A stretch of DNA of 64,000 bases from Eledone cirrhosa (taxonomy: Eukaryota), in contig OZ024743.1 of assembly GCA_964016885.1 (NCBI GenBank), positions 328,600,001-328,664,000 on the forward strand, written 5' to 3'. Positions within the stretch are counted from its first letter, which is position 1; every line of letters starts with the position of its first letter. The translations under genes and the position numbers were made by a program. Below are positions 6,568 through 7,633 of the stretch, piece after piece. The notes below the pieces were generated by a model. The model did not search any database. It was given only the letters and a program-made list of their open reading frames with translations, and had not been told where the DNA came from.

Positions 6568-7125
6568 TTATGATTTAGTGTTGAAGAATAAAAACTAAGA
6601 TAAAATAAAAATATATCTTAAAAAATGAGTCCCCTGAGGATGTGTCTCCCTAAGCTATAGCTTATTTATCTTGTAGGTAAGTGCACCAGTGGGTATTCCA
6701 TATACTTGAACAAAACACTACGGTTTACGTTGTTTCAGACCACACAGCTGTAAAGTTAATATCACCAGCAATGGCTGGGAGTTACCCTGCAATGGACTGG
6801 CGTCCCGTTCAGGAGGTGAAGGAAATTTGAGCTTCTATGCTTTATTTTAAAGGTAACTCAACAAAAGAAGAGAAGCTAGTGAAATACAGTATTATAAAGT
6901 GACACCACATCCAAACCAACACTCCACGCATCTCTCATAACTCATTCATCTTGTTATAATGTGATATAGTGGATAAAGAGTGGTCGTTGTCGTTTATATA
7001 AACAATACAGGTTTGTATAAATATTTCGTATCTCCAAAGAAATACAGTTTTAGGAAGCCGTAGCTATGCAAACACCGGGGGGGGCTAACGCCCTCTGGTG
7101 ATGTCCAGCAGAAGCAAGGGGGACA

Positions 7126-7169
7126 ACCGTCTATGCATTTCAGGCTTAACTGGCCTTCGTCAGGACGGT
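7126..7169 (-). ncRNA. Minimal type I hammerhead ribozyme
   Basis: accgtc-CTGACGA-aggc-cagttaa-gcct-GAAA-tgca-TA-gacggt. Perfect 6-bp stem I and palindromic stem III. Confidence 0.9.
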
Positions 7170-7208
7170 CCCTCCCACCACTTGCGACTGCTGGACTAGA
7201 AGACAGCT

Positions 7209-7264
7209 GAGAAAATATAGTTTTCTCGTCTGTGTAAATGAGGTGATTAATCTCATTTGCATAT
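7209..7264 (-). promoter_or_regulatory. Candidate snRNA-like promoter: octamer ATGCAAAT (7255-7262) and a TATA within a palindrome (7209-7227)
   Basis: Motifs seen directly. Same order and spacing as in family R2. Promoter function is inferred. Confidence 0.45.
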
Positions 7265-7464
7265 GAAGCTGCATAAGTTGGCTCAACTTATAATAAAAAA
7301 GAAATAGGATTTCGCTTCAAGCATAGCTTTATACAATATGTATAAATATTTCGTATTTCCAAAGAAATACGGTTTTAGGAAGCCGTAGCAATGCAAACAC
7401 CGGGGGGGGGGGGGGGGGGGGGGCTAACGCCCTCTGGTGATGTTCAGCAGAAGCAAGAGGGACA

Positions 7465-7508
7465 ACCGTCTATGCATTTCAGGCTTAACTGGCCTTCGTC
7501 AGGACGGT
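7465..7508 (-). ncRNA. Minimal type I hammerhead ribozyme (second tandem copy)
   Basis: Identical to 7126-7169. Confidence 0.9.
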
Positions 7509-7633
7509 CCCTACCATCGCTTTGAAACAGACAGCTGCTCCCCAATATACACGAATAAGGAAATACACACGTTTATATGACCTTACCTGAATATACACAC
7601 ATGTATATACAACAGAGTATATATGTATATATG

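Follow-up and report, generated by a model that had tools for sequence, protein, structure and literature searches.

A locus with one full 325-bp unit and two identical type I hammerhead ribozymes as a probable insertion of a small non-autonomous retrozyme

We found that a short locus, referred to here as R1, encodes on the minus strand of a 64-kb stretch of DNA (the window) two identical type I hammerhead ribozymes. Our data suggest that R1 is one ageing insertion of a small, protein-free mobile element, and the RNA of this element is predicted to self-cleave and give circles. The likely source of R1 is a 325-nt non-LTR retrozyme, non-autonomous and inserted once, whose ribozymes are built like those of amphibian satellite 2. 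R1 has every decidable feature of the retrozyme class and is likened to satellite 2 by build, not by sequence. Such retrozymes have been described in newts, corals, and mussels, and the R1 locus itself is ordinary, its class being an established and common one among animals.

Layout of the R1 locus

R1 contains approximately 1.6 units. In the sense of the predicted RNA, a 5'-truncated copy (7339..7537, minus strand) is followed by one full 325-nt unit (7014..7338, minus strand, 43% GC), which consists of a spacer (7338-7184) and a ribozyme block (7183-7014). Only 170 of the 325 bp are duplicated, and the 155-bp spacer (7184-7338) is single-copy save for one 9-mer that is kept in the upstream copy. 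The preliminary description had proposed a tandem of ~325-bp units; the period stands (325 from start to start, 7014 vs 7339, and 339 past a G-run), while a second full unit is missing and Tandem Repeats Finder returned no array at R1. The duplicated blocks, 7014-7183 and 7339-7522, are identical at 162 of 170 aligned columns. Outside the ribozymes the two copies differ, as had been described, by substitutions (eight in the 170 columns) and by a G-run, which is G8 at 7077-7084 and G22 at 7402-7423 on the plus strand (a C-run in the RNA). This 14-nt expansion is either slippage or an assembly error.

The upstream copy is collinear over 7339-7522, continues as a short remnant beyond a deletion, and lacks the spacer; the 5' arm of its helix I extension is mostly missing as well. 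An nhmmer alignment of the R1 unit with this copy spans 7537-7339 (E 2.9e-44), which, together with the 9-mer shared beyond the deletion, supports the earlier placement of the element end at 7537. The unit junction (7328..7346) is an inverted repeat that forms an 8-bp hairpin with a 3-nt loop, and the R1 3' end (7014) corresponds to the base immediately preceding the loop of this hairpin.

No meaningful open reading frame was found at R1, in agreement with the earlier claim: the longest stop-to-stop frame is 97 aa and the longest ATG frame of the circularised unit is 42 aa. Further degraded units in the flanks of R1 were not significant (best p 0.03, a 19-nt AT-rich match among six tests). Target-site duplications of retrozymes, when present, are longer than 4 bp; the best candidate at R1, a 9-mer at 6991/7570, is offset from the ends and is not convincing. 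There is no second R1 copy within the 64-kb window, a tRNA scan of the whole window returned 0 genes and thus no tRNA-derived head, and prokaryotic genomes, plasmids, and phages returned 0 matches, as expected.

The R1 hammerhead ribozymes

The two ribozymes lie at 7125..7170 (downstream copy) and 7464..7509 (upstream copy), both on the minus strand, with predicted cuts at 7132/7131 and 7471/7470. Both contain the conserved core and NUH triplet (CUGACGA, GAAA, and AUA). Each measures 44 nt with six Watson-Crick pairs in helix I, or 46 nt when a seventh G.U pair is counted. Helix I has 6 bp, helix II has 4 bp and a 7-nt loop, there is no extra base, and helix III is a single A-U pair that closes a palindromic UGCA loop (AUGCAU). 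The two identical 44-nt hammerheads of the preliminary description are therefore present, within a 54-nt identical run. Its reading of AUGCAU as the stem III palindrome of dimer-cleaving hammerheads also agrees with the definition given in passages of PMC4209133 and with the predicted energies, since the AUGCAU duplex (-4.7 kcal/mol) is favored over the monomer hairpin (+6.0 kcal/mol).

The label of minimal hammerheads, by contrast, did not hold. The minimal hammerheads of Penelope elements are characterized in the passages of PMC4209133 by a helix II of 7-8 bp, a helix I of 4-5 bp, an extra unpaired base, and an ill-defined loop 1. R1 shares the palindromic 15.2-16.2/loop 3 region with them but differs in its 4-bp helix II, its 6-bp helix I with a long extension, and the lack of an extra base after A9. 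The same source gives the canonical metazoan type I hammerhead a helix I of 6 bp, a helix II of 4 bp, and a helix III of 1-2 bp capped by a short palindromic loop (PMC4209133). The R1 hammerheads are thus canonical, extended type I ribozymes. The extension of the downstream ribozyme (7103..7196, minus strand) is a bulged inverted repeat with outer arms at 7103-7123 and 7170-7196, and its predicted fold (-47.2 kcal/mol, z -4.6) was matched in stability by none of 200 shuffles. This extension and the 7-nt loop II would offer a scaffold for the tertiary contact of loop 1 with loop 2 that canonical metazoan hammerheads have. One pair is atypical: position 10.1-11.1 is A-U in R1. G10.1-C11.1 is described as highly conserved in hammerheads (PMC4209133) but is not universal, given that axolotl Amex2 has U.U at this position (PMC7229834, in part).

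A strict descriptor (at least six Watson-Crick pairs in helix I, at least four in helix II, and a short helix III) found two sites in the window, both in R1, and none in 300 Markov-resampled 64-kb windows. Rfam returned no hammerhead match for the whole window at gathering score, nor the R1 hammerheads in local scans at E up to 10; the matches in both searches were microsatellite look-alikes. We infer that the one-pair helix III of R1 lies outside the Rfam models.

Self-cleavage of the R1 ribozymes is plausible given the predicted structures. For comparison, one of nine predicted hammerhead dimers from Xenopus cleaved in vitro, according to passages of 10.64898/2026.07.22.740005. In nearest-neighbor constrained folds of the R1 precursor the double hammerhead (-162.1 kcal/mol) was not energetically preferred over two monomers (-163.9 kcal/mol), and the unconstrained fold reached -178.8 kcal/mol, so that an energy preference for the double form was rejected. 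A 9-mer upstream of both ribozymes (~7202-7210 and ~7529-7537) is complementary to the strand just past the cleavage site. The upstream copy is predicted to fold with its 9-mer (~7529-7537) paired to this strand, which may represent an inhibitory alternative pairing.

The predicted monomer and its published counterparts

Double cleavage is predicted to release a 339-nt monomer (7132..7470, minus strand) whose ends are held by helix I. None of 100 shuffles was as stable as the predicted monomer fold (-96.9 kcal/mol, z -4.5), and 64% of the bases are paired in the circular fold. The two ends of the unit pair with each other through two 8-bp helices (7014-7021 with 7328-7335 and 7062-7069 with 7321-7328), which ties the spacer to the R1 element. 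Taken alone, the spacer is only modestly structured, with z between -2.5 and -3.3; of 141 background tiles, 11 attain -2.5 and 5 attain -3. Since the 3' end of R1 is found 118 nt beyond the cut, no linear cleaved monomer can have served as the template, and we take it that a circle or an uncut multimer would be needed.

R1 has two tandem type I hammerheads around a full monomer of 339 nt, within the 150-450 nt spacing of retrozymes. Like the metazoan non-LTR retrozymes described in passages of PMC7229834 and of bioRxiv 10.64898/2026.07.22.740005, it combines a 150-450-bp tandem unit, a type I hammerhead, no ORF, less than 50% GC, a self-paired monomer, and Penelope-like elements alongside; it differs in having only 1.6 units at the locus. 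Mussel retrozyme units are 350-390 bp (PMC7229834, in part). The ribozymes of most invertebrate retrozymes are reported to have a stable helix III and to cleave in monomeric form (PMC7761336, in part), unlike R1, whose one-pair helix III is of the amphibian type. Indeed, R1 resembles amphibian satellite 2 and axolotl HHR_Amex1 in its ~330-bp unit, one-pair helix III, and palindromic tetraloop. The 330-bp repeats of HHR_Amex1 and newt satellite 2 are reported in passages of PMC7229834 to cleave efficiently only as dimers (background in PMC2837043, in part). The helix I extension of satellite 2 is internally looped (PMC6155905, in part), as is that of R1, with its internal loops and bulges. R1 differs from satellite 2 in the A-U pair at 10.1-11.1, the AUA triplet, the lack of a large satellite array, and a host that may be an invertebrate.

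A sister family in the same window

A relaxed scan of the 64-kb window found 14 hammerhead-like motifs, four of which belong to a second family, F2. One F2 locus, F2a (16265..17087, up to 17226, minus strand), has a 431-bp period, 1.9 copies, hammerhead cores at 16572 and 17003, and an octamer at 16653-16660; its 3' end abuts (AT)n and an inverted segment lies at its 5' end. The other, F2b (28295..28905), is an inverted pair with hammerheads at 28621 (minus strand) and 28737 (plus strand) and an octamer at 28702-28709 (minus strand), and it is identical to F2a at 139 of 163 positions.

R1 and F2 are homologous in reciprocal single-sequence nhmmer searches (E 1.2e-3 and 2.2e-4). This homology includes the spacer: a spacer block without the ribozyme scored 34, a value reached by none of 4212 decoy tiles, and with the whole spacer as query three of 4212 decoy tiles reached the score. 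Across the extended ribozymes of R1 and F2, 96% of cells stay paired and both sides have changed at 10 of 27 pairs, among only three distinct sequences. The presence of homologous F2 at two other loci indicates that the element class of R1 is dispersed. Both F2 loci end near the same hairpin, which suggests a defined 3' end. F2 has inverted truncated copies or ends and a (TA)n target, features typical of Penelope-like insertion in passages of PMC8557442. In F2 hammerheads helix III is ACUAGU, and U.U sits at the base of helix II, a feature also reported for axolotl Amex2.

A conserved octamer in the spacer

The R1 spacer contains a perfect octamer, ATGCAAAT, at 7255..7262 (minus strand), which begins 130 nt upstream of the cut and is a candidate internal promoter element. 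It is present on the ribozyme strand in all three spacer-bearing R1/F2 copies, at 130 (R1), 118, and 118 (F2) nt before the cut. None of the remaining 11 hammerhead motifs (three truncated R1/F2 copies and eight from other families) has an octamer within 200 nt on its own strand. The octamer is not enriched across the window, with five found against 6.3 expected, three of the five being in R1/F2. The R1/F2 spacer alignment is identical at 48 of 76 columns (~63%), and the octamer, which was noticed post hoc, lies in its longest identical block, a 10-nt run that is not rare at such identity between families related by descent. The octamer of F2b is unchanged while its potential pairing arm has changed, which points to the sequence, and not the structure, being conserved. 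A second spacer block common to F2 is a hairpin with an AT-rich, TATA-like loop (7209..7227, minus strand; arms 7209-7215 and 7221-7227). Within it AAAnTATAT occurs 91 (R1), 80 (F2a), and 80 (F2b) nt before the cut, so that the TATA-like block follows the octamer by 38-39 nt.

The snRNA-type promoter of newt satellite 2 involves an octamer. This promoter is an internal, snRNA-type Pol II promoter (cited within PMC2220036, in part). We tentatively raise the possibility, about which we are ourselves doubtful, that R1 and F2 are self-transcribing invertebrate retrozymes with an octamer-plus-AT-box internal promoter upstream of a satellite-2-type dimer hammerhead. A Pol III reading of R1, which has a T6 run in both units, was considered and left aside, since a stop at T6 would exclude the promoter from the RNA. 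No promoter motif for metazoan non-LTR retrozymes turned up in the literature passages searched, and within literature lying mostly outside subscription journals we found no report that joins the octamer to retrozymes or satellite 2 and no retrozyme or hammerhead report for cephalopods or octopus. The term octamer in the passages of PMC6466107 denotes multimers.

Other elements in the window

Several retroelements occur near R1. On the minus strand, an RT/GIY-YIG-like ORF of 624 aa (2446-4320) is 5'-truncated and ends at (TA)n near 4370, and an inverted copy of its 5' end lies at 1496-1598. From its motifs we take the 2446-4370 element to be a likely member of the Hydra clade. A 56-bp piece of it recurs at 14798-14853, ahead of another endonuclease-like ORF. 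A link between R1 and this same-strand RT ORF was rejected, as the element ends at the microsatellite at ~4370 and has no DNA in common with R1.

On the plus strand, 31303-38724 is a Penelope-like element with terminal repeats that carry long-helix-II hammerheads (cores at 31378 and 38583). It encloses a frameshifted ORF (31634-33781), further insertions, among them an RT ORF at 35788-37692 (Pfam RVT_1), split its 3' part, and an extra copy lies at 27327-27486 (minus strand). The Penelope-like label of the ORFs draws on Atlas look-alikes, 610 homologues, and sequence motifs; Pfam and PDB did not name them, apart from RVT_1 at E 0.03 in one of four pieces. Additional hammerhead motifs lie at 35427-35747, 48174-48228, 50308-50363, 57657-57727, and ~19159-19192, with palindromic helices III of 6-8 nt, and two of them form an inverted pair.

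A broken non-LTR element (8294-10666, minus strand, RVT_1), presumably R4/Dong-like, shares the strand of R1 and ends ~750 bp upstream of it, and related copies lie at 62165-63999. It is a possible source of read-through transcription into R1. The window also contains a SINE-like short dispersed repeat at 6028-6121, with copies near 24439, 44266-45218, 47005, and 51469 (at least seven in the window), and ~6785-6820 bears what we take to be a resemblance to a conserved SINE domain. Long fold-back structures at 28-386, 49896-50116, and 59243-59703 are perhaps MITE-like or inverted retroelement ends.

Retrozyme or fragments of a larger element

We asked whether the R1 blocks could instead be pseudo-LTR fragments of an autonomous Penelope-like element, that is, two 5'-truncated pieces in partial tandem with no free 325-nt element or circle behind them. 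R1 shares with the ribozymes of Penelope pseudo-LTRs the type I topology, a palindromic helix III, a 5'-truncated partial tandem, and a ribozyme near the 3' end (PMC4209133; PMC8557442, both in part). Partial tandems that form pLTRs are the normal layout of Penelope-like elements in the passages of PMC8557442, Xenopus retrozymes are described as resembling pLTRs in those of 10.64898/2026.07.22.740005, and the 118 nt from cut to 3' end in R1 is near the corresponding ~95 nt in the repeat that flanks the ORF (38509-38724). However, R1 has no RT plus GIY-YIG ORF attached, in contrast to autonomous Penelope-like elements, and a tblastn search with 10 pieces of the retroelement ORFs in the window found no match in 4321-8847. 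The R1 ribozyme is canonical, as opposed to the motif with a long helix II that adjoins the ORF at 31634, and base pairing connects the R1 spacer to the other end of the unit. Furthermore, the copies restart 76 (R1) and ~38 (F2a) nt upstream of the octamer, which is unlikely for independent random truncations. We consider pseudo-LTR fragments an unlikely source of R1. The RT/GIY-YIG-type ORFs in the window count in favor of R1 being a retrozyme, and R1 was probably moved by Penelope-like enzymes.

A local duplication of a solitary hammerhead segment by DNA slippage or unequal repair, with a spacer of ordinary host DNA, would account for the duplication of only 170 bp, the single R1 locus in the window, and a hammerhead identity that is within chance. 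Ordinary host DNA is not expected to be homologous to the F2 spacer and paired with the duplicated block, as the R1 spacer is, and we regard local duplication as very unlikely.

Divergence of the two copies

The preliminary description treated the identity of the hammerheads amid differing flanks as telling, and this proved to be weak evidence. The identical run that contains the ribozymes (7120-7173 and 7459-7512) is 54 nt long, and a run of this length occurs in 29% of 20,000 random placements of the differences. The ribozymes contain 0 differences in 46 positions compared to eight in the other 124 (Fisher p=0.075). Selection on the R1 ribozymes is accordingly not supported by their identity. 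Six of the eight substitutions could be assigned to a pairing partner; each of the six weakens a Watson-Crick pair, three fall in each copy, and none is compensatory. These data indicate that the two copies are each drifting away from an ancestor with better pairing. The distance between the copies is 0.049, which would correspond to ~7 million years with the calibration in the passages of PMC13282606 only if the host is an octopus, as the repeat landscape may suggest.

Intact catalytic cores in both copies, amid eight substitutions and two indels, are what might be expected if the pair had been domesticated for host RNA processing and were retained here by selection. The nonsignificant identity and the six of six assignable substitutions that weaken pairing argue against such retention, no host gene was identified nearby, and domestication is in our view highly improbable.

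The antisense strand of the unit (7014-7338, plus strand) folds better than the ribozyme strand, with z of -9.6 and -8.6 vs -5.9 and -5.7, and the folds contain 10 G.U pairs on the antisense strand vs four on the ribozyme strand. This asymmetry might suggest that R1 derives from an ambisense, viroid-like RNA replicon that has integrated, with selection for structure on both strands. We find this scarcely credible, because the plus strand has no complete ribozyme core and because in F2 the ribozyme strand folds better than the antisense strand in three of three segments. An ambisense ribozyme was rejected on the lack of a plus-strand core and of this asymmetry in F2.

Discussion

Our data favor R1 as an insertion of a small retrozyme, and its life cycle can be outlined by analogy with published retrozymes. 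A minus-strand transcript would read through the R1 tandem, possibly starting from the octamer-containing spacer. Because helix III has one pair only, the two ribozymes would then swap strands and form a double hammerhead around a shared 6-bp AUGCAU duplex. Contacts between helix I and loop II may assist this form, with cuts after 7471 and 7132, and an RtcB-type ligase would circularize the 339-nt monomer while helix I keeps its ends together. A Penelope-like RT/GIY-YIG enzyme could prime at a genomic nick and copy more than one unit; such copying from circles beyond unit length is the published retrozyme model (PMC4209133; PMC7229834, both in part). The outcome would be a 5'-truncated 1.6-mer beginning 118 nt past the cleavage site. 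The R1 copy has since decayed, with its catalytic cores still intact.

R1 may extend the one-pair, dimer-dependent type of ribozyme beyond amphibians if the host is an invertebrate. It also touches the question of how animal retrozymes originate from Penelope pseudo-LTRs. The octamer of R1 bears on how animal retrozymes are transcribed, in that a perfect octamer lies at a near-fixed distance from the cut in two families that are only ~63% alike in this region, and a 325-bp unit with an 8-bp element can be mutated directly. If the octamer is part of a promoter, the snRNA-type promoter of newt satellite 2 would be a design that is old among animal retrozymes or has evolved in them repeatedly, and an internal promoter would explain the high expression of non-autonomous retrozymes.
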